From assembly GCA_963826535.1 (NCBI GenBank), contig CAWGXL010000002.1, forward strand, positions 96,654-160,653: 64,000 bases of DNA. Direction: 5' to 3'. The notes under the pieces were generated by a model. It was not told the origin of the DNA. It made no database searches and worked only from the letters and a program-made list of their open reading frames with translations. This DNA is from an uncultured bacterium (lineage in GTDB: Bacteria; Patescibacteriota; Microgenomatia; Levybacterales; UBA12049). The translations under genes were made by a program, and so were the position numbers. The number at the start of each line of letters is the position of its first letter. The stretch's first letter is position 1. Of the stretch, positions 1,204-64,000 are shown in pieces.

Positions 1204-1234
1204 GTGCAGAGAGGTTTTCCCGATTTGATCGGGA

Positions 1235-5630: not shown

Positions 5631-5640
5631 TATAAAAAAA

Positions 5641-5667: not shown

Positions 5668-5791
5668 GTAGACTTAAGTGTACAAACAATATCATCTTTA
5701 GAAGTAGGTTGCTTTGTTTACTATAGTGTGATATTGTGCAAATAGTAAAAGCCCAGAACCTGCCTAACAATCGTGCCAGTCATTAAAAAAC

Positions 5792-7285
5792 ATGACTAAA
5801 CATAGGAAAGGCACAGATACATTTAAAAGGTTAATTACTCAAATCAGTAAGCCTTTATTAAGGTCAGAAATACTTTTCCCTGAATTATCCCGAGCCTCGC
5901 CTGCTCCAATTCTCATAGCTGATACCCGGACAAGAATATATTATGTTAACCCTGCATGGGAAAAGCTTTCCGGCTACAGTTTTAAAGAAGTTAAAGGTAA
6001 AAACCCTAAGTTCCTGCAAAGTGGTAAGACACCAAAACGGGTATTTAAAAAACTCTGGCAAGCACTTACGAAAGGGGAGTCTTTTACAACCGAAGAAATA
6101 ATAGACAGGCGGAAAGATGGCACAGAATATCAGTCCTACTCGATTTATTTTCCAATAAAAAGAAATGACAAAATAATGTATTATGTTCAGTTGCAGCATG
6201 ATATCACTGAACGTATGCGCCTCCTAAAGATAATTCATGAGAAGGAAGAAATGCTTCGCCTTATTATCGATAATGCGGTGGGCTACGCAATGTTCATGCT
6301 TGATAAACGAGGCAATATAGAGAGCTGGAATACAGGGGCAGAGCGATTGATTGGATATACGGGAAGGGAGGTTATAGGTAAGTATTTTTCTATGTTTTAC
6401 GCAAGAGATGATGTTACAAAGAGAAAACCCTGGAAACTACTGGCAAAAGTAGTTAAGAAGGGGCTCTTTGAGGAAGAGTTTTTGCAAGTCAAAAAAAACG
6501 GCACAAACTTTTGGGCGCATATAACCCTCTCTGCCGTAATGAGCAAAAGAGGAGCGTTAAAAGGATTTGTCCAAATTACCCGCAATATCTCAGCAGAAAG
6601 AGAGCTTGATCGGCAAAAAGACGCATTTATCGGTATTGCCTCTCATGAGTTAAAAACACCCATTACTACACTGAGCGCATATACTCAAATTCTGGAAAAA
6701 CGATTAAAAGATGATAAGAAAAATTCGTACTTCCTTTCAAATATTAAGGCGCAAACAGATAGGCTCGTGAGTCTTATCGATGATCTGTTAAATGTGAGTA
6801 GAATTGATTCAGGAAAACTAGATTTAAATTTAAAAAAATTTGACCTTAACACTCTAATCAAAAAAGTAGTTGTAGATTTCCAATACACAACGGATACTCA
6901 TATAATTACAGAAGAGGGAATCTTGGAAAATAAAGTAATTGGAGATGAGGTTCTTCTTGAACAAGTAATTATTAATTTACTTACAAATGCAATAAAATAC
7001 TCACCAATTGCAAACAAGGTTACCATCCACCTTTCAGCCAACCATAACCAGGCAATAGTCGCCGTGCAGGATTTTGGCATAGGAATTTCAAAAAAAGATA
7101 TTTCAAAAGTATTTGAGAGGTTTTATAGAATAAGAGATAAAGAAAAAGGGAGAGTCTTAGGGTTTGGGCTTGGACTGTATATTTCCTCAGAAATCATTAA
7201 AAAGCACCGAGGTAAAATTTGGGTTGAAAGCGAGAAAGGGAAAGGTAGCATCTTCTACTTCTCATTACCATTAGGGAAAAAATAA
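5792..7285 (+). CDS. Cytoplasmic sensor histidine kinase with two PAS domains
   Basis: PAS-like repeats, then the HisKA H-box ASHELKTPITTL and HATPase_c motifs NLLTNAIKYS, DFGIGIS, GFGLGLYIS. No TM segment. Confidence 0.85.
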   Translation: MTKHRKGTDTFKRLITQISKPLLRSEILFPELSRASPAPILIADTRTRIYYVNPAWEKLSGYSFKEVKGKNPKFLQSGKTPKRVFKKLWQALTKGESFTTEEIIDRRKDGTEYQSYSIYFPIKRNDKIMYYVQLQHDITERMRLLKIIHEKEEMLRLIIDNAVGYAMFMLDKRGNIESWNTGAERLIGYTGREVIGKYFSMFYARDDVTKRKPWKLLAKVVKKGLFEEEFLQVKKNGTNFWAHITLSAVMSKRGALKGFVQITRNISAERELDRQKDAFIGIASHELKTPITTLSAYTQILEKRLKDDKKNSYFLSNIKAQTDRLVSLIDDLLNVSRIDSGKLDLNLKKFDLNTLIKKVVVDFQYTTDTHIITEEGILENKVIGDEVLLEQVIINLLTNAIKYSPIANKVTIHLSANHNQAIVAVQDFGIGISKKDISKVFERFYRIRDKEKGRVLGFGLGLYISSEIIKKHRGKIWVESEKGKGSIFYFSLPLGKK

Positions 7286-8942: not shown

Positions 8943-8963
8943 TATATTTACTGCTGAGCTGAG

Positions 8964-25332: not shown

Positions 25333-26604
25333 ATGGATATACAACAGATGAAAAAAACTTCAGCATATCCTCACTATCTTATCTTGTTAGCTGGTTTAAC
25401 TTTTCTTGCATCTCTTTTCTGGTACTTAAAAATGTCATTTAGTGATACATTGATAATGTACAAGTTTGATTTACAAGTATATACTGTTGCTGCCCAAAAC
25501 GTCCTTTCCGGTGATAGCATTTATCAAACAGGTTTATTCTATTATGATCGCCTATTCTATTTTATCTACCCTCCCTTTGCTGCGCTTTTTTTCGTTCCCC
25601 TGGCAAACCTGTCATTGGAAGACAGTAAGTATATTTCAATACTGACAAATATAGCTGCACTTGTGTCTATAGCATGGATTTGTTGGGGGTTGCTTGAACA
25701 TTCGTGGGGAAGGAAGAGGTTAGTACTCACCTTATTTACTTCCGCACTATTATTATGGACAGAACCTGTTCAGGGAACATTATATTATGGCCAAATTAAT
25801 CTTTTACTCATGTTGCTGGTCTTAGCAGGTTTTTCAATGCGGAGAAACTCGATTTGGCAAGGGATATTAATCGGCGTAGCTACAAGTATCAAGTTAACTC
25901 CTGTAATTTTCATTGCCTATCTTTTTTTAACTCAACGCGTACGTGCCGGTATTATTGCTATTGGCACTTGTATCCTCGCCATAATTATTGGTTTTCTGCT
26001 CTTGCCCGATGACTCGCTTCGTTATTGGAGTGAGTTGCGTTATGGAGCAGGCTTGGTGGATGTTGGTATAAAATCATCATCCCTCAATGGTGTCTTGTTA
26101 AGGTTAATCAATCATACTGGAACTGCTAATGTTATTTGGTACATTGCTGCATCGGCGGTTGGAATATTGGGTATGTACCTTGCTGTACATAATAGTAAAA
26201 GGGGGAATGAGCTATTAGGATTACTTCTTTGTGCAATTACCGGATTACTAATATCACCTTTTTCCTGGACTCATCATTGGATATGGATGATTCTATTTAT
26301 TCCTTTGTTGCTCCATATATCTCTTCAAAAAAGAAACAGCCTTGGTTGGGTGAGTATATTGGTGTTGTGTGTTGTACTCCTCTCTTTCCGTCCTGGATAC
26401 CACCCTTTCCTTGGCGCAATTAGTAACGCTCTCGTCAATAAAAACCTACTTCTCTTTCACTTGTTTGATGCTATTACTCAAAACCTCTATAGTTTGGTCG
26501 GCATGATCATTTTAGGTTGCTCGGCTTTTATCGTGCTTTTTCATAATCGTTATAAAACTGACCCCGATCTAACTAACAAAATCATTGAGGACTCCCCGAT
26601 TTGA
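25333..26604 (+). CDS. GT87/DUF2029-family polytopic membrane glycosyltransferase-like protein
   Basis: DLQVYTVAAQNVLSGDSIYQ...YYDRLFYFIYPPFAALFFVPLANL is the DUF2029 N-terminal signature. 423 aa, multi-TM. Confidence 0.65.
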   Translation: MDIQQMKKTSAYPHYLILLAGLTFLASLFWYLKMSFSDTLIMYKFDLQVYTVAAQNVLSGDSIYQTGLFYYDRLFYFIYPPFAALFFVPLANLSLEDSKYISILTNIAALVSIAWICWGLLEHSWGRKRLVLTLFTSALLLWTEPVQGTLYYGQINLLLMLLVLAGFSMRRNSIWQGILIGVATSIKLTPVIFIAYLFLTQRVRAGIIAIGTCILAIIIGFLLLPDDSLRYWSELRYGAGLVDVGIKSSSLNGVLLRLINHTGTANVIWYIAASAVGILGMYLAVHNSKRGNELLGLLLCAITGLLISPFSWTHHWIWMILFIPLLLHISLQKRNSLGWVSILVLCVVLLSFRPGYHPFLGAISNALVNKNLLLFHLFDAITQNLYSLVGMIILGCSAFIVLFHNRYKTDPDLTNKIIEDSPI

Positions 26605-26722: not shown

Positions 26723-28801
26723 ATGAGAAATAACCTAGAACAAATAAAAACCTTCGTTAAAGCTTACAGGCGGATAATCATAATTGCTGCTCTCCTAATT
26801 TTTTCTCTAATCAACCCTCTCGTTTTTAATTACTACTATGGTAATCATGAAAAACTCTCTGAAACCTCTTATATCCTCCAGGATACTAAAAAATACGGTC
26901 CTGAATATTACGTTCATGCCCGTTTCCTTTATGAGGGCTATAAAAATCTTAAACTTGGCCGGTTTAATACACTATCTATAATTGATGAGAGTAATCCACT
27001 CTTTTCCTTTCCGCATTTTCAATTTTATAACATAGGACCCTCATTTATCCTCGCTGTTGCTAATTTCTATTTTCAGGATCCTATCAATAGCTATATCTTT
27101 GGAATTTGGTTAGCAACTTTTTTGTACGCTACAGGCGTCTATCTCCTCACTAAGAAACTAACCCGCTCTACCCAAACCAGTCTTCTACTTTCTTTTATTT
27201 TTATTACGAGCCCTTACTATATTACTATTTTTTTAAGTAGAAGTGCCTTTTCCGAATACATTGCTATCTCACTTATTCCAATTATTATATTGCAAATTTA
27301 TCACTTCTTGCAAACTTGCAAGGAACGGAACCCTAAATCTTTTTGGTTAAAATATTTATTCCTTTCAAGCCTACTAGTTATAAGTTCTACCATTTTTCTT
27401 CTTACTCATAATATAACCACCTTATTTTTCATAATAATTCTTGGGACTCCTGCTCTTATTCTCCTGGGTACAAAAGTAAAACCGGATGTTAAATCACTTT
27501 TATTGTTTATACCACCATCAGTTCTCATTCTTAGTAATATTTTATTTTATTGGATTCCCGTAATCACTTATGGTAACAAAACTAATATCAGTTCTACTTA
27601 TTCTCTACTACAAACCGGTCTACAGTGGAGTCCCTGGAATGTAGTTCTAGCCATTTTCCCAACCTCATCTCCCGGAGCAGTTAATACCGAGCTTTATTTA
27701 CAAATTGGCCTACCGACCCTATTACTATTTATCCTCTTTTTTAATTGGAGAAAAGCTTACATTCACCTACTAATTATATTGAGCTTTATTCTGGTTTGTT
27801 TCAATGTTTGGTCATATATTCCTCCTCTTTTCCATACTGTACAGTTTTCTTTAAGATTGTTGGCTTTTATACCACTCCTTCTTTTATTTGCAGCTAAGAG
27901 GCTTGGCAAAATTTCCTTCTATCTCCTTCTTTTTTCAACAATTTTTACTGCAATATTATTTTATCAAAGAGACACATCTTTTTATTTTCCGGCTCAAAAA
28001 TCGTTTAGCACTTTCCCAACTATAAATGATTGGGGTTTTTACCAAAATAGCGATTATAATGTTGCGCTTAAACCTAGTATGGACATTAAGAAGAGCCGGA
28101 TAAATGTTCGTGGAGAAACGGTAAATAATAATCAGGTATTCATTTTGGATAAAGTTAAAAATTCACTAGCGGTTACTTTCGAAATTAGTTTGAAAACTGA
28201 ATCTAACAAATTTGATAGTATAATATTTATCGACAGCCGACGTGATGAAAAAGGTGAGAGTATAAATTCCGAGATTCCTTATTCTGAAGTAAATGGTAAA
28301 TTTATTTATACTACCTGTCTGACAAATACTAAAGATGCCGACTTTTTTATTGTAAACAAAGGACAAGCTAATATTGTTTTTTTACAGATAAATAAGTACA
28401 ATGATTCACAGAACTCGTATATCGACGGTTTGTATCCCTACACTTGCAACTATAAATATAATCCGGTCAATCACAATTTTGATTTCAAGTTCGATAGGAA
28501 AGGCGAACAAGTTATTCTCCCTATTTATTACTCAACAGACAACCGGATTACTTCGTCAAATGATAAAGATATTGCCCCTTTTGGCGGCCTCCTTTACGCG
28601 GGTCACTCCTATACCGTTTTAGATAAAGATAAACTTGAAAGTAACCATGTCACAGTCAGTTTATTAGCTAATAATAGATTTATTCCTTTGGCTAAAACCT
28701 CACTGATGCTAACTTTATCAATACTTATTATTAGTTTAGTATTATTAACCACCAAAAAATTAAGAGCTTCAAAGTTTATAAACAAACTTAATAAAAAATA
28801 A
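26723..28801 (+). CDS. Large polytopic membrane protein (GT-C-like) with a C-terminal extracytoplasmic domain and a terminal TM anchor
   Basis: 692 aa. About 10 N-terminal TM helices, then a ~300-aa soluble region, then a TM helix. Confidence 0.55.
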   Translation: MRNNLEQIKTFVKAYRRIIIIAALLIFSLINPLVFNYYYGNHEKLSETSYILQDTKKYGPEYYVHARFLYEGYKNLKLGRFNTLSIIDESNPLFSFPHFQFYNIGPSFILAVANFYFQDPINSYIFGIWLATFLYATGVYLLTKKLTRSTQTSLLLSFIFITSPYYITIFLSRSAFSEYIAISLIPIIILQIYHFLQTCKERNPKSFWLKYLFLSSLLVISSTIFLLTHNITTLFFIIILGTPALILLGTKVKPDVKSLLLFIPPSVLILSNILFYWIPVITYGNKTNISSTYSLLQTGLQWSPWNVVLAIFPTSSPGAVNTELYLQIGLPTLLLFILFFNWRKAYIHLLIILSFILVCFNVWSYIPPLFHTVQFSLRLLAFIPLLLLFAAKRLGKISFYLLLFSTIFTAILFYQRDTSFYFPAQKSFSTFPTINDWGFYQNSDYNVALKPSMDIKKSRINVRGETVNNNQVFILDKVKNSLAVTFEISLKTESNKFDSIIFIDSRRDEKGESINSEIPYSEVNGKFIYTTCLTNTKDADFFIVNKGQANIVFLQINKYNDSQNSYIDGLYPYTCNYKYNPVNHNFDFKFDRKGEQVILPIYYSTDNRITSSNDKDIAPFGGLLYAGHSYTVLDKDKLESNHVTVSLLANNRFIPLAKTSLMLTLSILIISLVLLTTKKLRASKFINKLNKK

Positions 28802-29003
28802 TTCTTTCAAAATTATGATACTGACACTGAAAACTTTTCTAACCGGTTTAGTTTGCATATAAAGAAGTATTGCGGACTGAAAGATTTATGGTTCTTTTAT
28901 TGCTTTAATTATGGCAGGAATCTAAACTATATCTTGTTCCCCGAGGCTTGGATAAATATAACAAGATTACAAAATGGAATACCTCAAAAAAATGTTCAGG
29001 ATG

Positions 29004-29429
29004 CTAATGTACTTTACTTAGATCTCGGTTAACAAATGTTACTCCAAAAGCAAGCAGTTCTTCTTTATGCGGCGCGCTTTCTTCAATTGGATTCCAGATA
29101 TAAATCGCCTTTTTTAAATAAAAGGCGAGACCGATTTCCATAAGAACATTTGCACCGATATAACCCTTAATGCCATTCTTTTCATTATTGATGACTAAAA
29201 TACTATCTCCTTTTGCGATTTCATTAAAATTAGTTAAGATGAATTCCCTTTTTTGTTCAGGACTATTAACATCTTTAAAATGGGAGACCTCAAAGTCGTT
29301 CTTCTTTTTCATTATCTGTGCGGATACAGGTATATTTACCTTGAATCCTTTTACAATTAGCTCTTTTTCAATCTCAACCAACTCATTATAAAATGCCATA
29401 CTGGCACAAAGAAAAATTGTCTTTTTCAT
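29004..29429 (-). CDS. Nucleoside 2-deoxyribosyltransferase-like protein
   Basis: IFLCASMAFYNE...GYIGANVLMEIGLAFYLKKAIYIW fits the PF05014-like core (G..D.GT.fE.G.A.a..KP). Confidence 0.5.
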   Translation of the reverse strand: MKKTIFLCASMAFYNELVEIEKELIVKGFKVNIPVSAQIMKKKNDFEVSHFKDVNSPEQKREFILTNFNEIAKGDSILVINNEKNGIKGYIGANVLMEIGLAFYLKKAIYIWNPIEESAPHKEELLAFGVTFVNRDLSKVH

Positions 29430-29517
29430 ATTTAGATTATATCAGAGGAATAGTCATGATAATCCTAAGAAATCGATTAAAAACCTCATGAATTATGTAG
29501 AAATATTTGGGAGTTAT

Positions 29518-29793
29518 CTAAATTGCTTTTAATTTTTTTGTAAATATCTTAATTATACCAATTAAAAGAAACAACGGCCCACATCCATGAAAAATCACAC
29601 TTGCTGCGTTTTCTAGTCCATAAGACCAGTGAATTAAATTAGCATTACTAAGATGAGCAAGCACGAAACCAAATAAAATAAAAGAGGCACCAAGTATTAA
29701 CCAAAATTTTACGGGCCACTTTTTGATATTCATAATCAGATCATAACAGAAAGTTCTTTTAGAAGTTTTTGTTATCTTTTGTTTATTACCCAT
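29518..29793 (-). CDS. Small membrane protein
   Basis: 91 aa, two hydrophobic helices. Confidence 0.4.
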   Translation of the reverse strand: MGNKQKITKTSKRTFCYDLIMNIKKWPVKFWLILGASFILFGFVLAHLSNANLIHWSYGLENAASVIFHGCGPLFLLIGIIKIFTKKLKAI

Positions 29794-29891
29794 TTCAATA
29801 AATATTTTTCATCAAGATTTTCCATTTGTACTTGATTGACTCACTCTGTATCGTCAACTGTTAATTAATTCGAATATGATATTATAATTTT

Positions 29892-31133
29892 GTGTTTATA
29901 AAAAATAAAAGTTTTTTACTACTGGGATTATTAATTTTTATTGCTATTTTAATCCGCACCATCCACTTTCCAGAATATTTAAATTTTTCTCATGATCAGG
30001 GCGATTTTTCACTAAGGGCGTTTGAATTATACCAAACAAAATCAGTTGTCTTGATTGGGCCATCCACATCATTTATATGGAACGGACATGAATTTTATCA
30101 GGGATCAGTTATCTACTATATGTTTCTGCTTTTTCTATTACCTGCCAACTTCGATCCAATGAATGCTTCCTATTTATTTATGATATTTGCTGTAATAATG
30201 ATTATCCCGCTTTTTTTGGGCGTAAAGTATCTGCTAAATGAAAAATCTGCGTATCTGATTTCAGTCTTTTATGCGCTCCTGCCTTTATATATAGATTATA
30301 CAAAATTTTTATGGAACCCTAATTTCCAATTTGCATTATTACCTGTACTAGTCTTTCTTATGGGAATGTATCAGAAGTATAAAAGCACCATTTTATTTTT
30401 ATTTATTGGAGTATGGTTGGGGTTTTTACTAATGTTTCATTATCAGTTTGCACTTATTATTCTGGGAATAATGATCTATTATTTCGTTATAAAAAAAGAA
30501 AAAATAAAATTACTTCCATTATTAGTTTTAGGACTCGCGATTGGCTTCTCGCCGATAATTTTATTTGAACTGCGGAATAATTTTTATAATTTGAGAACGA
30601 TTTTATTAATCCTACCTCATTTCAACGAAATACATGAACCGAATAGCATATTACCGGTCCACTATTTTTTAAGTATATCTTTATTCGCTTTGATAATAAT
30701 TATCAGTTTTTTCAAACGTTTTATAACTTACCCGTTAATTATTTCAATATGTTTAATCCTATTTTTTTACTCACTTGTATTTTATAGTCTGAAGCTCGAA
30801 GCATTCAGTAATGAAACCGACTTGAAGTATCAAGGCTTACAAAAAATAGCGATAAAGATTAAAAAAGATGCCCCATCGAATTTTAATATCGTTGATCAAC
30901 ACACCCGAGACAATCAAGCAGCTGCCTTGAGATATCTCCTTACAGTTCAGTCTGTTGTACCTAATTCAAAAGATGATTACCATTCAGCCAATACGCTTTA
31001 TATTTACTCAAAAGAATCATTAGAAGATCTACTAAGAAATCCAATCTATGAAATTAAATCCTTTTTGCCTTATAAAAAAGCTACTTCTAGAAGAATAGAC
31101 AATCAATTATTTCTCTATACTCTTACTAAATAA
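29892..31133 (+). CDS. Polytopic membrane protein, GT-C (ArnT/PMT-like) glycosyltransferase fold candidate
   Basis: 413 aa. Multi-TM with a DQGDFSLRAFE-type first-loop motif resembling GT39/83 proteins. Confidence 0.5.
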   Translation: MFIKNKSFLLLGLLIFIAILIRTIHFPEYLNFSHDQGDFSLRAFELYQTKSVVLIGPSTSFIWNGHEFYQGSVIYYMFLLFLLPANFDPMNASYLFMIFAVIMIIPLFLGVKYLLNEKSAYLISVFYALLPLYIDYTKFLWNPNFQFALLPVLVFLMGMYQKYKSTILFLFIGVWLGFLLMFHYQFALIILGIMIYYFVIKKEKIKLLPLLVLGLAIGFSPIILFELRNNFYNLRTILLILPHFNEIHEPNSILPVHYFLSISLFALIIIISFFKRFITYPLIISICLILFFYSLVFYSLKLEAFSNETDLKYQGLQKIAIKIKKDAPSNFNIVDQHTRDNQAAALRYLLTVQSVVPNSKDDYHSANTLYIYSKESLEDLLRNPIYEIKSFLPYKKATSRRIDNQLFLYTLTK

Positions 31134-37802: not shown

Positions 37803-38711
37803 CTAAATCTTCCACCCAAGCTCTATCTTAATCTCCTTCACTGCTTTTTCATATTTGTCTTTCGTTAGCTGGTTATTTAATATGCAATACTTTTTACTAG
37901 TTAGTCCAAAGCAACCGATGCAATCAGAGCAGTTTGTTAGCCTTTCACTATAGTAACAATTTGAGCAACCTTGACTTGATACAAGAAACGCAGAGTCATA
38001 GCAGTCGGTTACCTCTATCGTTTCATAACATCGCTCGCATGCAGTTTTTATTACAGGGTTTCCATATGTGAAAAGGACATCCCAACAATTCTTTGTGTTA
38101 AAACCACTATTATACATATATCCGCAGTTTTCAGCAGTATAAGTATTAAAGCCCCAATAACAGTTCTTTGAATCATATATGTAATCTCCATATGGACTGT
38201 TTTCGCTATTAAGTTGAATGCTTGCAGGATGTGGAATCTGTTTTTTTAACTCAAACATTTGTTTTAGAATTTTTTCAGGTTTTTCCTTATTTAGTACTTC
38301 CACCTTTTTCAAATATTCATCTTTGGTATATTGCCGGTTAAATATACAATATTTTTTATGAGTTAGTGCAACACAACCAAAACAATCAGTGCAAGTGTTT
38401 AAAAATGATGAATAATGGCAATCAGTAGAGTTATTACAATTTATAAGATAAGTACAGCTATTACAATTATTGCAATCAATAGATTCATAACATTTTTCTG
38501 AGAATACCATCTGATAAGAATCTACGACCTTATTACCATTTGCCAATGTTGTATAGATAGAATCTGATAGTTCTAATACACAGAAGCAGTAAAAGCAATT
38601 CTTGATATTATCTACAAAATCTACGTATACACTATCAACAGCTGAGCGAATCATAGCAGACGGTACAGGAATCGATTTTTTCAGAAGTTCATATTTTTCC
38701 AGAAAATTCAT
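37803..38711 (-). CDS. Cys-rich protein, paralog B (internally duplicated CxxC-rich modules), unknown family
   Basis: MNFLEKYELLKKSIPVP.... Two modules each contain NC..C...LINCNNSTDCH.S..LN.C.DC.GC..L..KKYCI.N.Q.TK. C-terminus is LGWKI. Confidence 0.6.
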   Translation of the reverse strand: MNFLEKYELLKKSIPVPSAMIRSAVDSVYVDFVDNIKNCFYCFCVLELSDSIYTTLANGNKVVDSYQMVFSEKCYESIDCNNCNSCTYLINCNNSTDCHYSSFLNTCTDCFGCVALTHKKYCIFNRQYTKDEYLKKVEVLNKEKPEKILKQMFELKKQIPHPASIQLNSENSPYGDYIYDSKNCYWGFNTYTAENCGYMYNSGFNTKNCWDVLFTYGNPVIKTACERCYETIEVTDCYDSAFLVSSQGCSNCYYSERLTNCSDCIGCFGLTSKKYCILNNQLTKDKYEKAVKEIKIELGWKI

Positions 38712-38715
38712 AATC

Positions 38716-39624
38716 TTATACCTTCCACCCAAGCCCTTTTTTTATATCTATTAAAGCTTTTTCATATTGCACTTTTGTTAGCTGATTATTAAGTATACAA
38801 TATTTTTTATTCTTCAAACCCACACACCCGAAACAGTCAGAGCAGTTTAAGAGCTTTGTACCGTAGTGACAATTCATGCAACCCTCACTATATGTTAAAA
38901 AAGCGCAGTTATAACAAAAATCAGTATAAACATTCTCATAACATAGCTCTGCAAAACGATTAGTCTCCGGAGTCCCTCCAGTATGAAATATATCCCAACA
39001 ATGCTTCGTTAAACCACAGAAGTACATAAATCCGGAATTTTCAGAATAGTAACCTTGAAATGCCCAGTAACAGTTCTTTGAGTTATAGATATAATTACCA
39101 TATGGACAGTTCTCGCTATTGGATTGCTGACTTGCAGGATGAGGGATTTTAGGTTTAATTTCAAGCATTTGGTTAAGAATCTTTTGAGGATCTTGCTTTT
39201 TTAAATCCTCAACTTTTTTCAAATATTCATCTTTGGTATATTGCCGGTTAAATATACAATATTTTTTGTGATTTAACCCGACGCATCCAAAACAGTCAGA
39301 GCAAGAGTTTAATAAAGCGGAAAAATGGCAATCTGTAGAATTATTACAATCAATTAAATATGTGGAGCTATAACACTTAGTACTTTCAATACATTCGTAG
39401 CATTTTTCCGACTCAGTCACAAAATCACAATCTACAAGTTTATTCCCCCAACCATAATATGTATAAATACTATCAAAAAGCCTAGTTCCATCAAAGCAAT
39501 AATAGTCGTTCTTTCCTATATAGACAGCATCTACATATTCGCACTCAACTGTATTAGGACCGATTGTTATCGCTGGCACGGGAACAGATTTCTTCAGAAG
39601 CTCATATTTTTCAAGGAAAGTCAT
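38716..39624 (-). CDS. Cys-rich protein, paralog A (internally duplicated CxxC-rich modules), unknown family
   Basis: MTFLEKYELLKKSVPVP.... Same architecture as paralog B, with about 60% identity by eye. C-terminus is LGWKV. Confidence 0.6.
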   Translation of the reverse strand: MTFLEKYELLKKSVPVPAITIGPNTVECEYVDAVYIGKNDYYCFDGTRLFDSIYTYYGWGNKLVDCDFVTESEKCYECIESTKCYSSTYLIDCNNSTDCHFSALLNSCSDCFGCVGLNHKKYCIFNRQYTKDEYLKKVEDLKKQDPQKILNQMLEIKPKIPHPASQQSNSENCPYGNYIYNSKNCYWAFQGYYSENSGFMYFCGLTKHCWDIFHTGGTPETNRFAELCYENVYTDFCYNCAFLTYSEGCMNCHYGTKLLNCSDCFGCVGLKNKKYCILNNQLTKVQYEKALIDIKKGLGWKV

Positions 39625-39639: not shown

Positions 39640-42000
39640 CTATAATCTTGCCCGTTGGGAGATTTCGGCTTCGATTACCTCGGCGTTGCGGCCGAATTTA
39701 AGTCTCGAGAGTTCTTTTATCAGGTCGGCGACTCTTACGTTGCTAAGTTCTTTTTCGCGGCTAATATCTTTAGTGGTATCAAGCGAGAAAGGCGGTACAG
39801 GCTCACCGTTTACCAGGGTTCTCATATAAGCATTATATTTGTCAACATTTATTAAATCTGTTTCATTAAACATCGGTTGGAATTCGCGCTGTAAATAGCT
39901 GGCATCATTGACGCCGACCCGGAATGAAGCAATTGTCCCCACGTTTCCGAAAATTGCGTTTTTAATCTCTTCCTCCATCTGGCCTATGAATTGATTTGCC
40001 ACGATAAGATTGAGGCGGTATTTACGGGCTTCGGAAAGGATTTGGGCAAAATCGGGAGTAGCGAAATTTTGGAATTCGTCAACGTAGAGGTAGAAGTCTC
40101 GTCGTTTGTCCATATCCATATCCTGGCGTGACATAGCGGCAACCAGTATCTTGGGAACTAAGACCAAGCCCAAAAAGCTGGCGTTTTCTTCGCCGATTTT
40201 TCCTTTAGATAAATTAATAAGAAGGATTTTTCTTTCATCCATAACTTTACGGAAATCGAATGAGCTTTTGGATTGGCCAATTATATTTCTTATCATTTTA
40301 TTTGTAACGAAACGGCCGAATTTAGAGACAATATAATCCATAACCTCGGATTTGTGAAAGTCGGATGTTGTCGCGATTTGATCAGTCCAGTAACGGCGGA
40401 TAATAGGATCCTGAACTTTGGGCAATAACTCCTGTACATAGGCTGGATCCGTAAGAATACGTACAACCTCAATAAAGGTGCTTCCCGGCTCGTACATGAC
40501 AGTTAACATAGCATTTCGAACAGCATGTTCAAAACGTGGTCCGATAATACCGGTTTTATTTGGATCGAAGAGCTTATACATTAACCCTATTATAGAGTTG
40601 GTAACAAAATGTTTTTGTTGTTCTGTCTGGGCATCAAGCATATTGAACCCCATCGGCCGCTCTAAATCTGATGGATCAAATAAAATAACTTCTTCGGCGC
40701 GGTTGGGCGGAATTTGGCGCAATACATCTTCTACTAAATCTCCATGTGGATCAACAACGGCTATTCCTTCGCCCGCGTGAATATCTTGCATGATCATACT
40801 TTTAAGGAATTCGCTTTTTCCGGTACCTGTTTTTCCGATGATATACGTATGCCTTCTTCTATCGTCTTGGCTAACATATACTCCACGATTGAGACCACGG
40901 AATGTGCTTTTGCCAAGGTAAAGACCGCTTGTCGGTAGATTGGATGGCGCCGGTGCACGTTTGGATGTCAGCCAGTGAATACCGGGCGTTGTTATACTTT
41001 TATTTGGGAAATGGAAGATGGTTGCGAGTTCCTCACTGGTATGTAATGATGACTGACCCCACAGCGGGAAGTATCTATAAATAAAATCATGCATAAAAAA
41101 ACCTTTCATGAGGTGTTTGTTTTTTCTGAAATAATTTTGACCGGCGTATTGACCGAAAGTATTGATAATATTATTTAAGTGTGATTGTGCTGCTTGTTTT
41201 GTAGTAGAACATACAACAATCCTTATAACAGTATCAAACCCAACTTTGTTGATAGAACCTTCAATGCCCTCAAGCTCTTTCGCATCGGTTTTATATTTAG
41301 CAGTTTCCGGGCTGGCTTCATTTTTTTTAGTTTTACTAATATATCCCCTCCCTGATTTTTTCCAGTGATCACCTGCAGGCCTGACCAATATTTGAATTGT
41401 CGCCCCTTCTCCTTCACCCATTTTTGCAAGGACAGAGGTAATCGATGACAACGGGTCAACCGGCATATCTTTGAAGACTCTTATAGGTATATAGGAACTA
41501 TTTTTCTGATGTAATGAAGCAAAAGCTACTTTTCCATTTTCAGTAAAGATTTGGTATTCAGTTCCTACTACGTTGCCCGCTTTCTGTTTTGCAGTTGGAT
41601 CATTGACCGGCACGACTTCAGCATCCGGATAGGAGCCATTAATTTGCTTTTCTATGAAATCCCGATGTTTATTCGGAACCCAGACATAGAAACGAATTTC
41701 ACCCGGAAGTCCTACGACTTCAAAAGACAGGTGAGGTTGTGTTTTAAAGAATTCGAGCCATCCGATTTCCCTAAGCGATGCAAGTCCCGAAAACATTTGC
41801 TCGGCGGCATCTATTTTGATCTCATTTTCCCGTGGAACTGTTACCTGCAATAGGGTCGAATTTAGTGACTCTTGTTCGCGGTTTCTATTCCGAAACCAGA
41901 TAAGCAATGTATATCCAAATAACCACAAAAACCCTATCGTAACTGAAATAACAATTAAAGTAATAATAACGGTTATAATGAGAGAATTTATATTATCCAT
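39640..42000 (-). CDS. Membrane-anchored P-loop ATPase of the type IV secretion coupling-protein superfamily (TraG/TraD/VirD4-like, with a TraM-recognition-type C-terminal region)
   Basis: N-terminal hydrophobic hairpin. Walker A YIIGKTGTGKSEF. Walker B LYVDEFQNF. C-terminal ...ANQFIGQMEEEIKNAIFGNVGTIASFRVGVNDASYLQREF resembles TraG-D_C. Confidence 0.65.
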   Translation of the reverse strand: MDNINSLIITVIITLIVISVTIGFLWLFGYTLLIWFRNRNREQESLNSTLLQVTVPRENEIKIDAAEQMFSGLASLREIGWLEFFKTQPHLSFEVVGLPGEIRFYVWVPNKHRDFIEKQINGSYPDAEVVPVNDPTAKQKAGNVVGTEYQIFTENGKVAFASLHQKNSSYIPIRVFKDMPVDPLSSITSVLAKMGEGEGATIQILVRPAGDHWKKSGRGYISKTKKNEASPETAKYKTDAKELEGIEGSINKVGFDTVIRIVVCSTTKQAAQSHLNNIINTFGQYAGQNYFRKNKHLMKGFFMHDFIYRYFPLWGQSSLHTSEELATIFHFPNKSITTPGIHWLTSKRAPAPSNLPTSGLYLGKSTFRGLNRGVYVSQDDRRRHTYIIGKTGTGKSEFLKSMIMQDIHAGEGIAVVDPHGDLVEDVLRQIPPNRAEEVILFDPSDLERPMGFNMLDAQTEQQKHFVTNSIIGLMYKLFDPNKTGIIGPRFEHAVRNAMLTVMYEPGSTFIEVVRILTDPAYVQELLPKVQDPIIRRYWTDQIATTSDFHKSEVMDYIVSKFGRFVTNKMIRNIIGQSKSSFDFRKVMDERKILLINLSKGKIGEENASFLGLVLVPKILVAAMSRQDMDMDKRRDFYLYVDEFQNFATPDFAQILSEARKYRLNLIVANQFIGQMEEEIKNAIFGNVGTIASFRVGVNDASYLQREFQPMFNETDLINVDKYNAYMRTLVNGEPVPPFSLDTTKDISREKELSNVRVADLIKELSRLKFGRNAEVIEAEISQRARL

Positions 42001-42006: not shown

Positions 42007-42534
42007 TTAAATTGAGGCTTGTTTATTTTGTTTTACATCTTTGACTGCATCCGGGTCGTATTTACACCATTGGTACATTATCATAGCCGCAAGCCAATGG
42101 GTTGAGTCTAAAAATTCAGTATTTTTTAACTTTTGCAGCGCTTGTGGATAATTCATTGGGAGGTGGATCGTACCGGTTGGAGTCTTGATAATTGGCGTTG
42201 AATCTACGGCAGGAGTAACTGCCGTAACCTTTTGAATTTCTTTTTCTAATTTTAACTCGCGGCCATCAGGACCATGTTCGACTATATTTTTTAATTCTTG
42301 CGGAATCATAACTTCGGGGGATAACGAAGTAGTTATTTCAGGCGTTACAGTTTCCGCGCTATGAGTGGATTCGGATACCGGCACAGCAATTGTTGGCTCC
42401 TGTTCTTTATTCCCGGTGATTACCGCCGGTTCAGGCATATCTCCGCTTTGTTGCCCAGCTGTTGCAGCCGGTTGACCCGTTATATTTGTTTGAGGTGGAA
42501 CTGTTTGTTTTTGTAATTGTTTTGGATCCTGCAT
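42007..42534 (-). CDS. Hypothetical protein with a disordered Pro/Thr/Gln-rich N-terminal half
   Basis: 175-aa ORF immediately upstream of, and co-oriented with, the ATPase. Confidence 0.45.
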   Translation of the reverse strand: MQDPKQLQKQTVPPQTNITGQPAATAGQQSGDMPEPAVITGNKEQEPTIAVPVSESTHSAETVTPEITTSLSPEVMIPQELKNIVEHGPDGRELKLEKEIQKVTAVTPAVDSTPIIKTPTGTIHLPMNYPQALQKLKNTEFLDSTHWLAAMIMYQWCKYDPDAVKDVKQNKQASI

Positions 42535-56989: not shown

Positions 56990-58159
56990 ATGGCAGAACA
57001 TATCCTCTACTTAGGTTATTGGTACCAAAGAACCTCGCTACATCTATCGGAAGTTTACGACTTTCTTAAATATGGTACAAGTCCCCTTAATTTAAACAAA
57101 GAGAAATTACAGCATTTACTTTCAGAAATGACTTTGAAAAAAGTTTCATTTACAATCGATATTTTAGAATATATCGAATTGGAAGCTGAAGATAATATAA
57201 AAATAAGATTTTACGAGGACGGTTTGGTAGTTATGGCAAAACCATTCCATAAAATCGAGGAAGCAAAAACACAACTTTCTGAATATTATGCAAATCGTTT
57301 TATCCCGGCCATCAGTTATCTTTTCAGTCTTGGTGCTCCTGTCCCCAAAGAATTGGCAAAAACAAAATCTACATACACCTATTTTTTGATCACACAACAC
57401 GCAAATAAAGAAGCAGTAGATATTTTACTCAAAGAATTGGGCGAGAAAGAATATTTTGAGTTTATGAACGAAGATATTGCAATCTACAGAGGAGACACTC
57501 ATTATGTGATCAACAGCAATAAAGATTTTGCAGGTATTGAACAATTGATAGAGATGTTTATTTTCTTTAGTGAATTTAAAGCACAGCTGCATCAATATCT
57601 CGATCTGCATAGGTCTGTTTGGGAAAAGATTGAGAAAATAAAAGAGCAAGGTGCTATTCTCGGCAGAAATATTGAAAAGCAGCGTCATGAACTTGAAAGT
57701 TACAAAAAAAGTATAGAACTTATTGATGGCCGAATGGAGCAAATGGGATTATATATTTCGACCAGGTCCAGTATTGTCCAAAAAAGCGGGTGGGGAGATG
57801 TTTTGACTAAGGTATTGGAATTTAAGTACGAAAATCTGCGCCACAATCTTGACTATGTGAAGTCATTATGGAAAATGACCAAACAATATGTTGATTCCGC
57901 TATACAACTTTTTAATGAGATAAATCAAACAAGTACCAAGTATGCTGTAAATGTACTGACGATTATCTCAAGCGTCGGTATCGTAGGAGTAATTCTCTCG
58001 CACCTTGTGAAAACAGAATATCCGCAAGTATCAAGTATCGGCATTTTTTACCTTTTACTACTTCTCTCAGTTTCGTTCTTTATCCACAGGTTTACTGGTT
58101 TTATCTTCAAGTCCATACGATACAAGATAAGCAATGTTGATTATAAAAAAGAGCTCTAA
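56990..58159 (+). CDS. Hypothetical protein with two C-terminal TM helices (CorA-like topology but no GMN motif)
   Basis: 389 aa. Soluble helical N-terminal domain plus 2 TM helices at the C-terminus. Confidence 0.5.
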   Translation: MAEHILYLGYWYQRTSLHLSEVYDFLKYGTSPLNLNKEKLQHLLSEMTLKKVSFTIDILEYIELEAEDNIKIRFYEDGLVVMAKPFHKIEEAKTQLSEYYANRFIPAISYLFSLGAPVPKELAKTKSTYTYFLITQHANKEAVDILLKELGEKEYFEFMNEDIAIYRGDTHYVINSNKDFAGIEQLIEMFIFFSEFKAQLHQYLDLHRSVWEKIEKIKEQGAILGRNIEKQRHELESYKKSIELIDGRMEQMGLYISTRSSIVQKSGWGDVLTKVLEFKYENLRHNLDYVKSLWKMTKQYVDSAIQLFNEINQTSTKYAVNVLTIISSVGIVGVILSHLVKTEYPQVSSIGIFYLLLLLSVSFFIHRFTGFIFKSIRYKISNVDYKKEL

Positions 58160-58267
58160 CCACGCCTGCTTCCTTACTCATCTGTCAGGTTCCTGTCAAG
58201 TAGAAGTGGATCATCAGGGATATAATTTGGCTTATAGTATAGATATTGAGTTATTCTTAAATTTACT

Positions 58268-59425
58268 ATGCAAAGGTTAGAACAGGCAATACCTGGAATA
58301 ATCGATGGAGTCAATGGTTTTGCACCATGGGAAGCGCCTCATCGTGAAGCGATTAAACCTCAACAGGTTCCATTTGCTATGCATAATGGGAAAGAACGAC
58401 GTCCGACACATTCCATAGACCACGGTGATTTTCAGATAATAGCAATTCCTGGATTAATGGGTATTTTTAATATCACAGCATTCCCAAGAGATAATGATTC
58501 GACGCATCTTCTAGGACGACAACTAATTGATCGTCAAAAAATTACTATTGGAACACCGGATACTTCAAGACTAGTATGGCTTACGATGAATAATAGGCAT
58601 TTAGAAACGACCCCGGAACAGAGTATTTGGGAACCAGGCGATACACTTGGTTACAATTTGGAAGATCCAAGAGCTGTTGTTGTTAGTAAAAGTAAAAGAG
58701 TAGCTCTGGGATTATCAGCGTTGTCAGAAAAACCAGACGACAATGGAATCTATCTTCCATACCCTGCTCGGGCGTATGTTGACAGTATAAATCCTACAGC
58801 CCTGGTAGACTTGGAGGTCATAACAGAGTTTGGGCCAGGGAAAAACTTCGTGTCACTAGGCTATCCGGGAGAAGAAGATAATTGGTGGGGTTTTAGACGT
58901 GAAGGTGAAGGCTTAGGACATGAATTACTAGTTCTCCATGATGATGGAAAGAAATTCCGAGCAGTGGGAACATTACCTCTTCCAAAGGATATACCTGGTT
59001 TCGGATTAAAGGCAGGTGCCTCTGCAACGCCGGTATGGATTGATGAACAATGGGGAATTATCCCTTTCCACGGTATGGAATTTGAAAATGGTTTATTTGT
59101 TTACTCGCAAGGAGTAGCGATACTAGAAAGAGGGACTTCTCATGAGCAACCATTCGCTGTTAAAAATCCGATACCAACCCTACACCCCGACCACTTTAAT
59201 CCTCTTAGAGGCGAAGATCTAACGGCTCTAGAATTAAATCCCATAATTAGAAGAGCAACATATAGCACCGGCTTGCATGTTGATGTTTCAAATGACATAT
59301 TCAGAACCTTAGTTAGCGTTGGAGATACTGTTACTGTTTTTGAAAATCGAAAATTATCAAAAGTGAAAGAAATGCTCAGAACCAAAAAATCAGGAGTAAT
59401 TTATCCTAGCTCCCAGGCTGCTTAA
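58268..59425 (+). CDS. Hypothetical protein. GC content is visibly above the local background.
   Basis: 385-aa ORF with no motif recognised. By eye about 42-45% GC against about 35% for neighbours. Confidence 0.5.
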   Translation: MQRLEQAIPGIIDGVNGFAPWEAPHREAIKPQQVPFAMHNGKERRPTHSIDHGDFQIIAIPGLMGIFNITAFPRDNDSTHLLGRQLIDRQKITIGTPDTSRLVWLTMNNRHLETTPEQSIWEPGDTLGYNLEDPRAVVVSKSKRVALGLSALSEKPDDNGIYLPYPARAYVDSINPTALVDLEVITEFGPGKNFVSLGYPGEEDNWWGFRREGEGLGHELLVLHDDGKKFRAVGTLPLPKDIPGFGLKAGASATPVWIDEQWGIIPFHGMEFENGLFVYSQGVAILERGTSHEQPFAVKNPIPTLHPDHFNPLRGEDLTALELNPIIRRATYSTGLHVDVSNDIFRTLVSVGDTVTVFENRKLSKVKEMLRTKKSGVIYPSSQAA

Positions 59426-59807: not shown

Positions 59808-60376
59808 TTAAATTTTCAAAGTTTTTTTTACAACGTTAATTCCTTCGACTAATCTATCAACATCCTCCTTAGTATTATATAAATACAGAGATGCTCTCGC
59901 TGTAGCCGGTACACCTAGAGCTTGCATAGTAATTTGTGCGCAGTGATGGCCGGAGCGGATTGCAATATTTTGTCCATCGAGAATTTGAGCGATATCATGC
60001 GCATGGGCGTTTGTTATATTAAAAGAAAAAATACCGAGCCGGTCTTTATATGTTTTTGGACCGTATAATTTTAAGAAAGGTAAATTTTTTAATTTTTCAA
60101 GTGCATATTTAGTTAGTTCATTTTCATAACTAGCGATTTTTTCCCAACCAATTTTTTTTAAATATGAAATTGAGGCTGACAAACCTACAACCCCTTCAAG
60201 ATTACCGGTTCCTGCTTCAAATTTATCAGGAAGATCAGCCCAAGTTGCTTTATTTTTGGTTACAGTTTTTATCATATGACTACCGACATGAAGCGGATCC
60301 ATTGTTTCGAGCAAATCTTCCTTTGCCCATAGCACACCGACCCCCGTTGGCCCAAGCATTTTGTGAGCGGAGAAGG
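59808..60376 (-). CDS. sufS: Cysteine desulfurase SufS, C-terminal half only. The 5' part is truncated at the low-GC/high-GC junction.
   Basis: ...AFSAHKMLGPTGVGVLWAKEDLLETMDPL...RSGHHCAQ.... The PLP-Lys motif (FS-A/G-HK) is the first recognisable element. Everything N-terminal in the ORF track is translated from unrelated high-GC DNA. Confidence 0.75.
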
Positions 60377-61328
60377 CAAGACGTTCTTCCTGGGGTATGC
60401 CGCGGTGCAGGCGGGAGGCGACCCCTCGCTGCTGTTCGATGACCTCGTCCGCAACGCGCCGGGATTCTCGAAGCCCTGGCTGCAAGCCGCCTTCGTGCTG
60501 CTCGTGGTCGGGTATGGAACGAAGATGGGATTGGCCCCCATGCATACGTGGAAGCCCGACGCGTATGGCGAGGCGCCGGGGATCGTGGGCGCCCTGATGG
60601 CCGGCGCCCTGACGAGCTGCGCCTTCCTCGCTCTTTCCCGGGTCTTTCACGTTCTGACCGCCGCGGGAGAGGGAGCATTTGCTGGGCGCATCCTGGTCGT
60701 GCTCGGGCTCTTCTCCATGGCCGTCGCCGGCGTGTTCACGGTCCGTCAGCGAGACCTGAAGCGCATGCTGGCGTATTCGAGCGTCGAGCACATGGGAATT
60801 CTGGCGTTCGGTCTCGGCCTCGGCGGCAGCGGTATCTTCGGCGCCTTCCTGCACATGCTGAACAACGGGATCATCAAGGGCGTGATGTTCCTCTCGGCCG
60901 GGAACATCCACCGGGCCTACGACAGCAAGTACGTCGAGGACGTGTCGGGGGCGCTCCGGCGCGTCCCGTGGTCCGGCGCCTTGTTCCTGGCCGGGTTCTT
61001 CGCGGTGACCGGCTCTCCGCCCTTTGGCCCGTTCGTCAGCGAGCTGTCCATTCTCAATGCCGCGATGGAACAGCATCGCTGGGGCGTCGCGGCGGCCATG
61101 CTGGGTCTGCTTCTCGTCGTGTTCATGGGGATGGGGGTGACGGTGCTCGGAGTCGTCCAGGGCGAGGCGGGGCCGAGCTCGAGCCAGTCCCGATTCCGGG
61201 ACGGCGTTCTCAACACATTGCCGGCGCTGGTGCTCCTGGCCATGTCGTTCGGCATGGGAGTGGCCATGCCCGACGCGATCCAGTCGATGGTCCGGGAGGC
61301 CGCGGACTACGTCGGAGGCCGGCGATGA
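60363..61328 (+). CDS. NuoL/NuoM/NuoN- or HyfB/HycC-like proton-translocating membrane subunit. C-terminal ~320 aa only, 5'-truncated at the junction.
   Basis: MGLAPMHTWKPDAYGEAPGIVGALMAG and KRMLAYSSVEHMGI are complex-I antiporter-subunit signatures. High GC. Its stop overlaps the next gene's ATG (ATGA). Confidence 0.7.
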   Translation: MSGEGKTFFLGYAAVQAGGDPSLLFDDLVRNAPGFSKPWLQAAFVLLVVGYGTKMGLAPMHTWKPDAYGEAPGIVGALMAGALTSCAFLALSRVFHVLTAAGEGAFAGRILVVLGLFSMAVAGVFTVRQRDLKRMLAYSSVEHMGILAFGLGLGGSGIFGAFLHMLNNGIIKGVMFLSAGNIHRAYDSKYVEDVSGALRRVPWSGALFLAGFFAVTGSPPFGPFVSELSILNAAMEQHRWGVAAAMLGLLLVVFMGMGVTVLGVVQGEAGPSSSQSRFRDGVLNTLPALVLLAMSFGMGVAMPDAIQSMVREAADYVGGRR

Positions 61329-62860
61329 GCCTCCGGGCGGGGCGCGCGGTCGAGAATGGCGAAGCCGTCCCGGTGGGCGAAGTCCCCGAGCTGTCGAACG
61401 AGGAGTTCCGGCAGGTCGTGATCGAGGCCTGCCGTCGGGAGCGGCGAGTGTCGGCGCTGTTCGGCGACTCGAGAGACGGCGAGGGTGGCCGCGATCTCGT
61501 GGAGCTCTACGCGGTACTGGCCGAGGAGGACACGGCGTCGCTGCTCCTCGCCCGGACCCGGATCGAGGCCGACGTCTTCGAGTCGCTGACGCCGGATTGC
61601 CCGCAGGTGCACCTGTTCGAGCGCGAGATTGCCGAGCAGTACGGGTGCGTGCCGCGGGGGCACCCGTGGCTGAAGCCCGTTCGGTTCCATGCCCCGTACC
61701 GTCGCCCGGCCTCGGGCGTCGAGACGGGGCCCAGGCCGCCCGTGGTCGGAGTGATGGACTACTACCGGGTCGAGGGCGACGAGGTGCACGAGGTGGCGGT
61801 CGGGCCCGTGCACGCGGGGATCATCGAGCCGGGCCACTTTCGCTTCCAGTGCCACGGGGAGACGGTGTTCCACCTCGAGATCTCGCTCGGCTACCAGCAC
61901 CGGGGCATCGAGCGGCACCTCGTCGGCGGTCCGACGCCCAGGACCGTGCACTACATGGAGACGCTCGCCGGCGACACGACGCTCGGTCACGCGACCGCGT
62001 ACTGCCACGCCGTGGAAGCCCTGGCCCGGATCCACGCCCCGGCGAAGGCGCAGTTCATTCGCGGCATCGCGCTCGAGCTGGAGCGACTGGCGAACCACGT
62101 CGGCGATCTCGGTGCTCTCGCGGGCGATGTCGGCTATCTGCCCACGGCCTCGTTCTGCGGGCGCATCCGCGGCGACTACCTGAACATGAGCGCGCTCTTG
62201 TGCGGGAATCGATTCGGCCGGGACCTGACTCGCGTGGGCGGCGTGCGCTTCGACATCGACGAAGCGGTGCGAGAGAGCCTTGTCACGCGGCTGGACGCCG
62301 CGGAGCGGGACACCGCGAGTGCCGTGAACCTGCTCTGGGAGTCGTCGTCGGTGATGTCGCGGTTCGAGGATGCCGGGAGCATCTCGGAGGAGGTCGCGCG
62401 GGAGATCGGTCTCGTGGGCCCGGCCGCCCGCGCCAGTGGCCTGGGACGCGACGTGCGAACCGACTTTCCCAAGGGCGTCTACCGCTACAGCCACGTGCCG
62501 ATGTGCACGTGGAGCACCGGTGATGTCTTTGCGCGGGCGTACGTCCGCTGGCTCGAGATCCAGAACTCGATCCGCTTTATCCGCGAGGAGCTTCAGGAGC
62601 TGCCGGAAGGCGCGCTCCAGGTGAGTGTGCCCATCTTGATGCCCGAGAGCATCGTGGTGTCGCTCGTCGAGGGCTGGCGTGGGGAGATCTGCCACGTGGC
62701 GATCACCGACGAGGCGGGGAAGTTCCGCCGCTACAAGGTCGTCGACCCCTCGTTCCACAACTGGTCCGGTCTCGCGCTCGCCCTCCGCGGACAGGAGATC
62801 TCGGACTTTCCGTTGTGCAACAAGAGCTTCAACCTGTCCTACGCGGGCTTCGACCTGTGA
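61325..62860 (+). CDS. NuoC-NuoD fusion / HycE-like large subunit of a group-4 hydrogenase-related complex, apparently lacking the [NiFe] cysteine ligands
   Basis: NuoC-like FEREIAEQYGCVPRGHPWLKPV, then GPVHAGIIEPGHFRF. At the L1 position it reads ETLAGDTTLGHATAYCHAVE (no CxxC). At the C-terminus it reads VDPSFHNWSG (no DPCxxC). Start taken at the ATG at 61325 rather than the track's 60548. Confidence 0.7.
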   Translation: MSLRAGRAVENGEAVPVGEVPELSNEEFRQVVIEACRRERRVSALFGDSRDGEGGRDLVELYAVLAEEDTASLLLARTRIEADVFESLTPDCPQVHLFEREIAEQYGCVPRGHPWLKPVRFHAPYRRPASGVETGPRPPVVGVMDYYRVEGDEVHEVAVGPVHAGIIEPGHFRFQCHGETVFHLEISLGYQHRGIERHLVGGPTPRTVHYMETLAGDTTLGHATAYCHAVEALARIHAPAKAQFIRGIALELERLANHVGDLGALAGDVGYLPTASFCGRIRGDYLNMSALLCGNRFGRDLTRVGGVRFDIDEAVRESLVTRLDAAERDTASAVNLLWESSSVMSRFEDAGSISEEVAREIGLVGPAARASGLGRDVRTDFPKGVYRYSHVPMCTWSTGDVFARAYVRWLEIQNSIRFIREELQELPEGALQVSVPILMPESIVVSLVEGWRGEICHVAITDEAGKFRRYKVVDPSFHNWSGLALALRGQEISDFPLCNKSFNLSYAGFDL

Positions 62861-62901
62861 TTCGTCTCCTTCGAGCTCGAGTGCTTCAGGGTCATCGGAC
62901 C

Positions 62902-63729
62902 ATGCCGTTTCCGGACGGGCCTCCGCCGGAGCTGCCCGCGCGGTTTCGCGGCCGGCCCGAGATCGACGCCGGCCTGTGCCGGTCCGGCTGCCGCGCGTGC
63001 GCGGAGGCCTGTCCGACCCAGGCGATCACGGGCGGGGAGTCGGCTCAGATCGACCTCGGCCGCTGCCTCTTCTGCACCGACTGCGTGGAGGCCTGTCCCG
63101 AGGGCGCGATCTCCTTCACCAATGACTATCGTCTCGCGGTGCGCCGGCGCGAGGACCTCGTGGTCTGCGGCAATCAGGATGCGCTCCCGCTCGCCGCGGA
63201 GCTGGGTGCGGAGCTGCATCGCCTGCTCGGGCGGTCGCTCAAGCTGCGCCAGGTATCGGCGGGCGGCTGCAATGGGTGCGAGCTCGATACCAATGTCCTC
63301 AACACGGTGGGCTGGGACCTCGGGCGGTTCGGGGTGCAATTCGTGGCGTCTCCTCGACACGCGGACGGCCTGCTCATCACCGGCGCGGTCTCCCAGAACA
63401 TGAAGCTCGCGCTCCAGAAGACCTACGATGCGATCCCCGCGCCGAAGATCGTCATCGCCGTGGGGGCATGCGCCGTCGGCGGCGGCCCGTTCGCCGGCCA
63501 CGCGGAGGTGAACGACGGGGCCACCGATCTGCTGCCGATCGACCTGCTGATACCGGGCTGTCCGCCGCACCCCCTCACGATCCTCGACGGCATCCTCCGG
63601 TTGCTGGGTCGAGTGGACGGCGGGAAGCCCCGGTCGAGTCCGGCGATCGAGCAACCCGGGCAGTCAGCGTGGCGAGCCAGGCCGGGTGGTGGCACGCCGC
63701 CCGGCCGTGTGGGCGAACAGCGGCCGTGA
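62902..63729 (+). CDS. Fusion of a 2x[4Fe-4S] ferredoxin (HycF/NuoI-like) with a NuoB/HycG-like small subunit
   Basis: CRSGCRACAEACP and CLFCTDCVEACP cluster motifs. Then GGCNGCE...VASPRHADGLLITGAVS...VGACAVGGGPF...IPGCPPHP (N2-cluster-type ligands). An alternative upstream start at 62815 is possible. Confidence 0.7.
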   Translation: MPFPDGPPPELPARFRGRPEIDAGLCRSGCRACAEACPTQAITGGESAQIDLGRCLFCTDCVEACPEGAISFTNDYRLAVRRREDLVVCGNQDALPLAAELGAELHRLLGRSLKLRQVSAGGCNGCELDTNVLNTVGWDLGRFGVQFVASPRHADGLLITGAVSQNMKLALQKTYDAIPAPKIVIAVGACAVGGGPFAGHAEVNDGATDLLPIDLLIPGCPPHPLTILDGILRLLGRVDGGKPRSSPAIEQPGQSAWRARPGGGTPPGRVGEQRP

Positions 63730-64000
63730 TCTGGCCCGTCCGTCGCCGGTCCTCACGCCACGCGCCAAGCGTGACCCGCGGGCCGGCCCTAGGCCTGCGG
63801 CCTGGCGATTCCTTGCAGCCCTAAATTTTAGGGCTGCGGGATACGCGGACGGCGCCGCGCAACCTATTCAGAATTGGAGGTCATCCGCCTGTCCAGCGTA
63901 AAGTATGGCGCGAGTGAGGAAAACGCCCGCACCATGAACCTGCTCCAGACCTGCATACCTGCCGACGCGCGCAGCGTCTGCCGTCTTACGGAGCCGGATA

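Follow-up and report, generated by a model that had tools for sequence, protein, structure and literature searches.

Chimeric contigs are a recognised class of error in metagenome assembly (PMC8201837, PMC11261854), and their frequency varies with the assembler employed (PMC11261854). Misassemblies have been reported to be relatively rare in comparison with mis-binning (PMC8201837), and contigs uniting the DNA of different genomes are the class of error that tools of the GUNC type target (PMC8201837). The stretch of DNA analysed here, 64,000 nucleotides long and referred to below as the window, resembles such inter-genome chimeras in several respects: two distant lineages lie on one contig, GC content, tetranucleotide profile and codon use change in a step, genes are truncated at the breakpoint and the adjacency lacks independent support. 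It differs from the classic chimera generated along a path of the assembly graph, in that its join contains no shared repeat or k-mer. According to our analyses, the window would consist of ~60.4 kb of low-GC Patescibacteria-like chromosome joined end to end to unrelated high-GC DNA, the latter carrying the distal part of an operon for a membrane complex of the hyf/Ehr type. We consider it highly probable that the window is part of a deposited chimeric contig derived from a metagenome or a single cell, and that its join does not reflect biology but is almost certainly an error.

An abrupt passage from low-GC to high-GC DNA had already been pointed out in a sequence-only reading of the window, which recommended sliding-window GC and tetranucleotide profiles as a check. 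Both profiles flip at one place only, and this single break separates 36.9% GC in positions 1 to 60381 from 68.5% GC in positions 60382 to 64000. In 500-nt windows the low-GC side showed a GC fraction of 0.369 ± 0.037, with a maximum of 0.470, whereas the high-GC side showed 0.688 ± 0.019, with a minimum of 0.652, and a two-segment model of GC content outperformed a one-segment model by ~704 lnL units. Strand-symmetrised tetranucleotide profiles of 2 kb maintained a correlation of r ≥ 0.85 with the left-side mean up to 60 kb, while the correlation of the right side of the join with the left fell to about −0.5 (−0.51 between sides). GC at third codon positions ranged from 0.27 to 0.32 on the left side, with 0.27 in the sufS fragment, versus 0.87 to 0.90 on the right side, with 0.87 in the hyfF fragment. 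No further join was found by tetranucleotides and GC within positions 1 to 60381, where the best second change point improved the fit by +11 lnL units, and the 64-kb window contains no Ns. Composition alone placed the change point at 60324 (support 60316–60337), 57 nt away from the join defined by homology. This displacement is explained by the sufS active-site stretch, which is locally GC-rich; the same conserved GC-rich patch of sufS is present in the low-GC relative L001, and position 60324 was rejected as the true join.

Homology on both sides defined the join exactly (Table 1). In blastn comparisons, three high-GC contigs from JGI metagenomes (L003, L004 and L005) each begin aligning at window base 60382, the four bases to the left of it being mismatched in all three, while L001, at 73% nucleotide identity, matches through 60381 and stops at 60382. 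The overlap of the two source sequences at the join therefore amounts to 0–1 nt. In hyfF the cut falls at the second base of codon 165, and in sufS it falls after one base of a codon. The previous reading, in which the two frames met within 60363–60380 as converging gene halves, has to be corrected in both respects, as the homology-defined join lies at the position given in Table 1 and sufS and hyfF abut with their truncated 5′ ends, both genes being read away from the join.

Table 1. Features at and around the join, in positions of the window
Feature	Position	Strand	Basis
sufU (Fe-S sulfur-transfer protein), intact, 127 aa	59422..59805	-	TIGR01994 SufU 1.2e-31, PF01592
sufS 3′ fragment, comprising the final 190 codons and one base of the codon before them	59808..60381	-	TIGR01979, PF00266
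Spurious 422-aa ORF over the join (190 aa of SufS plus 232 aa antisense to hyfF)	59808..61076	-	exact P0361
Blunt join of two source genomes	60381..60382 (between these bases)	.	homology ends on both sides
hyfF-like 3′ fragment (hydrogenase-4 subunit F, NuoM/N-type antiporter subunit)	60382..61328	+	NF005044, PF00361
Spurious 483-aa antisense ORF over the large-subunit gene	61307..62758	-	exact P0366
Large subunit (NuoC/NuoD- or HycE-like), intact, 511 aa	61325..62860	+	PF00346, PF00329
Fusion of 2x[4Fe-4S] ferredoxin (HycF/NuoI-like) and NuoB/HycG-like small subunit, 275 aa	62902..63729	+	PF01058 and Fer4 families

The nature of the join bears on the way in which it could have originated. Switching between genomes at repeats or shared k-mers is the commonest source of chimeric contigs in de Bruijn graph assemblers, and on this account an assembler would have passed here from one genome to the other at a sequence common to both. 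Nevertheless, comparison of L003, L004 and L005 with L001 revealed no sequence common to both sources at the join, and no repeat occurs near it, which leaves misassembly of this kind with a next to negligible probability. The lack of shared sequence argues instead for a chimeric read or template, or for a join made after assembly. In the former case, a chimeric template or read arising by ligation, amplification or long-read chimerism could have extended or bridged a contig end; in the latter, a merging or scaffolding step that inserted no Ns might have been responsible. An origin at a restriction site or linker was also contemplated and rejected, since the join reads A on its left and CGT on its right, whereas the relatives carry TCGT on the right side and AAAG on the left, so that no common site existed there. 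Overall, we infer a laboratory or computational origin of the join, and not one in a cell.

To the left of the join, only the 3′ part of sufS is found, on the minus strand. The earlier estimate that about 220 N-terminal residues would be missing proved to be close, as the fragment spans positions 215–402 of 403 in TIGR01979 and 195–371 of 371 in PF00266, so that ~214 N-terminal residues are absent. Its TIGR01979 score of 258 bits lies below the cut-off of 475, and the match is not full-length, the N-terminal half of the PLP fold being absent from it. Both the lysine motif 'SAHK' and the C-terminal stretch 'SGHHC' are preserved in the fragment. The left fragment is a gene fragment of the SufS family and not a functional member of it. 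Similarity to Patescibacteria-like SufS begins at 'LAFSAHK', the PLP-lysine motif, and the sequence N-terminal of it is unrelated. The adjoining sufU is 71% identical to the sufU that adjoins sufS in L001, and the order sufU–sufS of this cysteine desulfurase pair is the same in L001 and L002, the difference being that the sufS of the window lacks residues 1 to ~214.

The nearest named relatives of both SufS and ClpC were proteins annotated as 'Patescibacteria group bacterium', with 73–75% and 75% identity, respectively, and Saccharimonadales and Levyibacteriota appeared lower in the list of ClpC matches. The left ~60 kb also encodes LexA, histidine kinases, RNase HII, CoaBC, a subtilase, threonine dehydratase, transaldolase, a PilB-type ATPase and a VirD4-like protein, and looks like an ordinary stretch of the chromosome of a Patescibacteria-like organism.

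The contigs of the nearest low-GC relatives, L001 (1–928) and L002 (1–835), end inside sufS as well, at different codons. The best 120 SufS matches were, without exception, partial proteins of no more than 329 aa. Such a predominance of partial matches probably reflects the use of a fragment as query, and assemblies of this lineage may also break recurrently within the 5′ half of the gene.

On the right side, the plus-strand gene begins mid-protein, as had been proposed from the sequence, while its identification as NuoL-like could not be maintained, because it encodes a protein like hydrogenase-4 subunit F, of the NuoM/N class (PF00361). Nor does this antiporter subunit lack the ~300 N-terminal residues initially estimated: 164 of 479 residues are missing. 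The fragment, beginning within codon 165, runs to codon 479 and the stop, and tblastn placed residues 165–479 of the L003 HyfF at 60381..61325. It matches positions 193–494 of 531 in NF005044 with a score of 240 bits against a cut-off of 610, a match that is not full-length for hydrogenase-4 subunit F, and it shares 97% amino acid identity with the full-length 479-aa proteins P0121 and P0122 of JGI metagenomes. HyfF matches at 95–97% identity were all JGI metagenome proteins, whereas the named relatives belonged to Planctomycetota, Phycisphaerales and Tepidisphaeraceae (61–71%) and to Myxococcota (65%), with Thermoanaerobaculia also listed. At the nucleotide level, the high-GC segment is 92–94% identical to L003, L004 and L005, and it is colinear with L003 over 60382–64000 at 92% identity. 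All three contigs have a complete hyfF, upstream of which lie hyfB-like, hyfC/NuoH-like and 215-aa genes, and this is its native context. Elsewhere in the 64-kb window, neither the lost parts of the two truncated genes nor the genes preceding hyfF in the relatives were found.

Searching each side separately, as had been recommended, led to different taxa, namely Patescibacteria for the left side and, for the right, Planctomycetota or Acidobacteriota as nearest named relatives of a high-GC lineage. On the strength of these protein matches, the two sides represent lineages differing at the level of phyla, Patescibacteria-like on the left and an unrelated high-GC organism on the right.

The order hyfF–large subunit–ferredoxin/NuoB fusion in this hydrogenase-related membrane complex of the hyf/Ehr type (group 4) is the same in L003 and L005, the window differing from them in the loss of HyfF residues 1–164 and in the absence of the hyfB-like, hyfC-like and 215-aa genes. 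The large subunit is 92.6% identical over its full length to a 510-aa protein of L003, encoded there at 5440–6972. In group-4 hydrogenases two cysteine pairs hold the NiFe centre, whereas the 511-residue large subunit of the window contains no CxxC motif and hence lacks both pairs. The high-GC operon looks like one for a hydrogenase-related (Ehr-type) complex rather than for a true hydrogenase. The ferredoxin/NuoB fusion is 95.6% identical to a 250-aa protein of L003 (7014–7766) and continues in the window for 25 codons beyond the L003 stop. Since the tblastn alignment was ungapped over residues 1–250, this difference in size (275 versus 250 aa) corresponds to a different stop codon and not to a frameshift. 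As for the two truncated genes, the sufS and hyfF fragments are functionless in their present context, each of them lacking its promoter, its start codon and the N-terminal third to half of the protein.

The possibility that the join is genuine deserves consideration. A Patescibacteria cell might have taken up high-GC bacterial DNA, possibly from its host or a neighbour, and incorporated it into sufS by illegitimate recombination, very recently and before any amelioration. Several features of the window are compatible with such an event: the breakpoint lies within a long deposited contig, the left side encodes machinery of the DNA-uptake or transfer type (a PilB/GspE ATPase and a VirD4/TraG-like coupling protein), and rare end-joining in the cell would also leave a blunt join. 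In addition, the high-GC DNA extends to the window end at 64000, with a single boundary visible in the window, and the presence of the 5′ half of sufS beyond that DNA would fit a true insertion. Genomic islands acquired by horizontal transfer likewise appear as blocks of atypical composition adjoining native DNA. Unlike such islands, however, the high-GC piece is accompanied by no integrase, transposase or tRNA/att site at the join, the only tRNAs in the 64-kb window being located at 8963 and 37651, and neither meaningful direct or inverted repeats nor a target-site duplication were found to flank the join, which also lacks microhomology. The piece begins within a codon of a membrane-subunit gene and comprises part of an operon deprived of its promoter, the genes to the right of the join within the window being of the hyf type only. 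Furthermore, the insertion would have destroyed the only sufS seen in the window, partner of the adjoining sufU and member of an essential pathway.

The evolution of the high-GC piece also speaks against residence in a low-GC genome. When substitutions were polarised with L003 and L005, the ratio of GC>AT to AT>GC changes was 34:17 on the window lineage versus 40:17 on the native L003 lineage, and the GC content of the piece (0.685) equals that of L003. Neither the substitution counts nor the comparison of GC with L003 revealed any drift toward the AT-rich composition of the left side, so that the extreme contrast in GC (37% versus 69%) shows no amelioration. Synonymous and nonsynonymous changes in the piece amounted to 58 and 26, respectively, and this mostly synonymous pattern indicates that selection in a high-GC host has acted on its genes until the present. 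The window piece, L003 and L005 display mutual identities of ~93.3–93.5%, from which the window piece would be a third member of a high-GC population.

Occurrence of the same adjacency in independent genomes had been named as one observation that would speak against an artificial join. It was looked for and not found: the 31–44-mers from each side of the join had no exact match among GTDB representative genomes and JGI metagenome contigs, and the join-spanning protein P0361 stands as a singleton in the protein collection, so that no second assembly carrying the adjacency appeared in any of these sources. Taking both sides of this evidence into account, we regard uptake and recombination in a living cell as highly unlikely. 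The explanation favoured from the outset in the sequence-only reading, a misassembly, contamination or artificial join, gains support from the blunt mid-codon cuts, the different lineages, the complete hyfF operon of the relatives and the lack of drift. The window combines what characterises a chimeric contig, that is, different source organisms in one assembled record, with an adjacency that is not reproduced and native contexts that differ.

A more trivial origin would be the construction of the window itself, if two records of one assembly had been concatenated and the boundary between bases 60381 and 60382 were simply that between two contigs. The blunt join and the arbitrary cuts in both genes certainly resemble two abutted contig ends, and L001 and L002 offer examples of contigs that end inside sufS. 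The public record contradicts this explanation. The ClpC of the window is 100% identical to P0241, found in NCBI/ENA on one contig of 196,521 nt, and the same contig carries four other left-side proteins, namely SufU (P0362), a 385-aa protein (P0363), a 389-aa protein (P0364) and threonine dehydratase. The spurious 422-aa ORF, which crosses the join by 695 nt, has its exact counterpart in NCBI and ENA in P0361, recorded on one 196,521-nt contig and forming a cluster of one among ~15 billion proteins. The 483-aa P0366, wholly within the high-GC part, is recorded on the 196,521-nt contig too. Since P0361 and P0366 share this contig with the left-side proteins, the join is part of the deposited contig and includes no Ns. 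Conversely, genuine contig ends would have yielded a partial SufS of 190 aa and a partial HyfF of 314 aa, and both are absent from the collection. Concatenation during construction of the window was accordingly rejected, P0361 being an exact match that spans the join in the deposited contig, and we attach only a very small probability to it. The join is thus present in a public contig, its sides differ in origin and both genes are bluntly cut mid-codon.

The proteins recorded for the high-GC part also provide a hint about the remainder of the deposited chimeric contig. An exact look-up of 13 forms or alternative starts of the true hyfF, large-subunit and ferredoxin/NuoB products and of the partial SufS and HyfF retrieved none of them from the collection, and among three minus-strand ORFs looked up those of 422 and 483 aa were present and one of 271 aa was absent. 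P0366 had been called instead of the true large-subunit gene. The fact that true hyf genes were missed and antisense ORFs were called suggests gene calling tuned to low-GC DNA, and the high-GC part would therefore be a minority of the 196,521-nt contig or of the genome.

The join itself has nothing biological to teach, and the value of its detection lies in quality control and in a flag on the record. At least 3.6 kb of a 196.5-kb contig in NCBI/ENA is foreign DNA, and as a consequence of the chimera and of low-GC-tuned gene calling the spurious P0361 and P0366 have entered protein collections, whereas the real hyf genes went uncalled. To infer an incomplete SufS or the possession of hydrogenase-like genes for this Patescibacteria lineage would be misleading.

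Some other loci of the low-GC side may be mentioned. Two ORFs of 389 and 385 aa to the left of sufU (56990–59425, plus strand), corresponding to P0364 and P0363, have no Pfam or NCBIfam match, and each forms a singleton cluster in the collection of 15 billion proteins. The window starts within a gene for a secretion or pilus ATPase of the PilB/GspE type (1–1246, minus strand; PF00437, MshEN domain), and a VirD4/TraG-like coupling protein of 786 aa is encoded at 39640–42000 on the minus strand, adjoined by several ORFs without family match (37803–39624 and 42007–42534). The PilB/GspE and VirD4/TraG-like genes may constitute a DNA-transfer module. GC on the low-GC side reaches its lowest level (0.30–0.33) in the region 27000–31000, where a single 2-kb window, alone among those of the left side, deviates by more than 3 SD from the mean tetranucleotide profile, with which it still correlates at r = 0.95. 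This region encodes a protein of 692 aa that matches no family, together with membrane glycosyltransferases of the PMT_2 type, with a GT87-type glycosyltransferase located just upstream (25333–26604), and looks like a cell-envelope locus rather than a second join.
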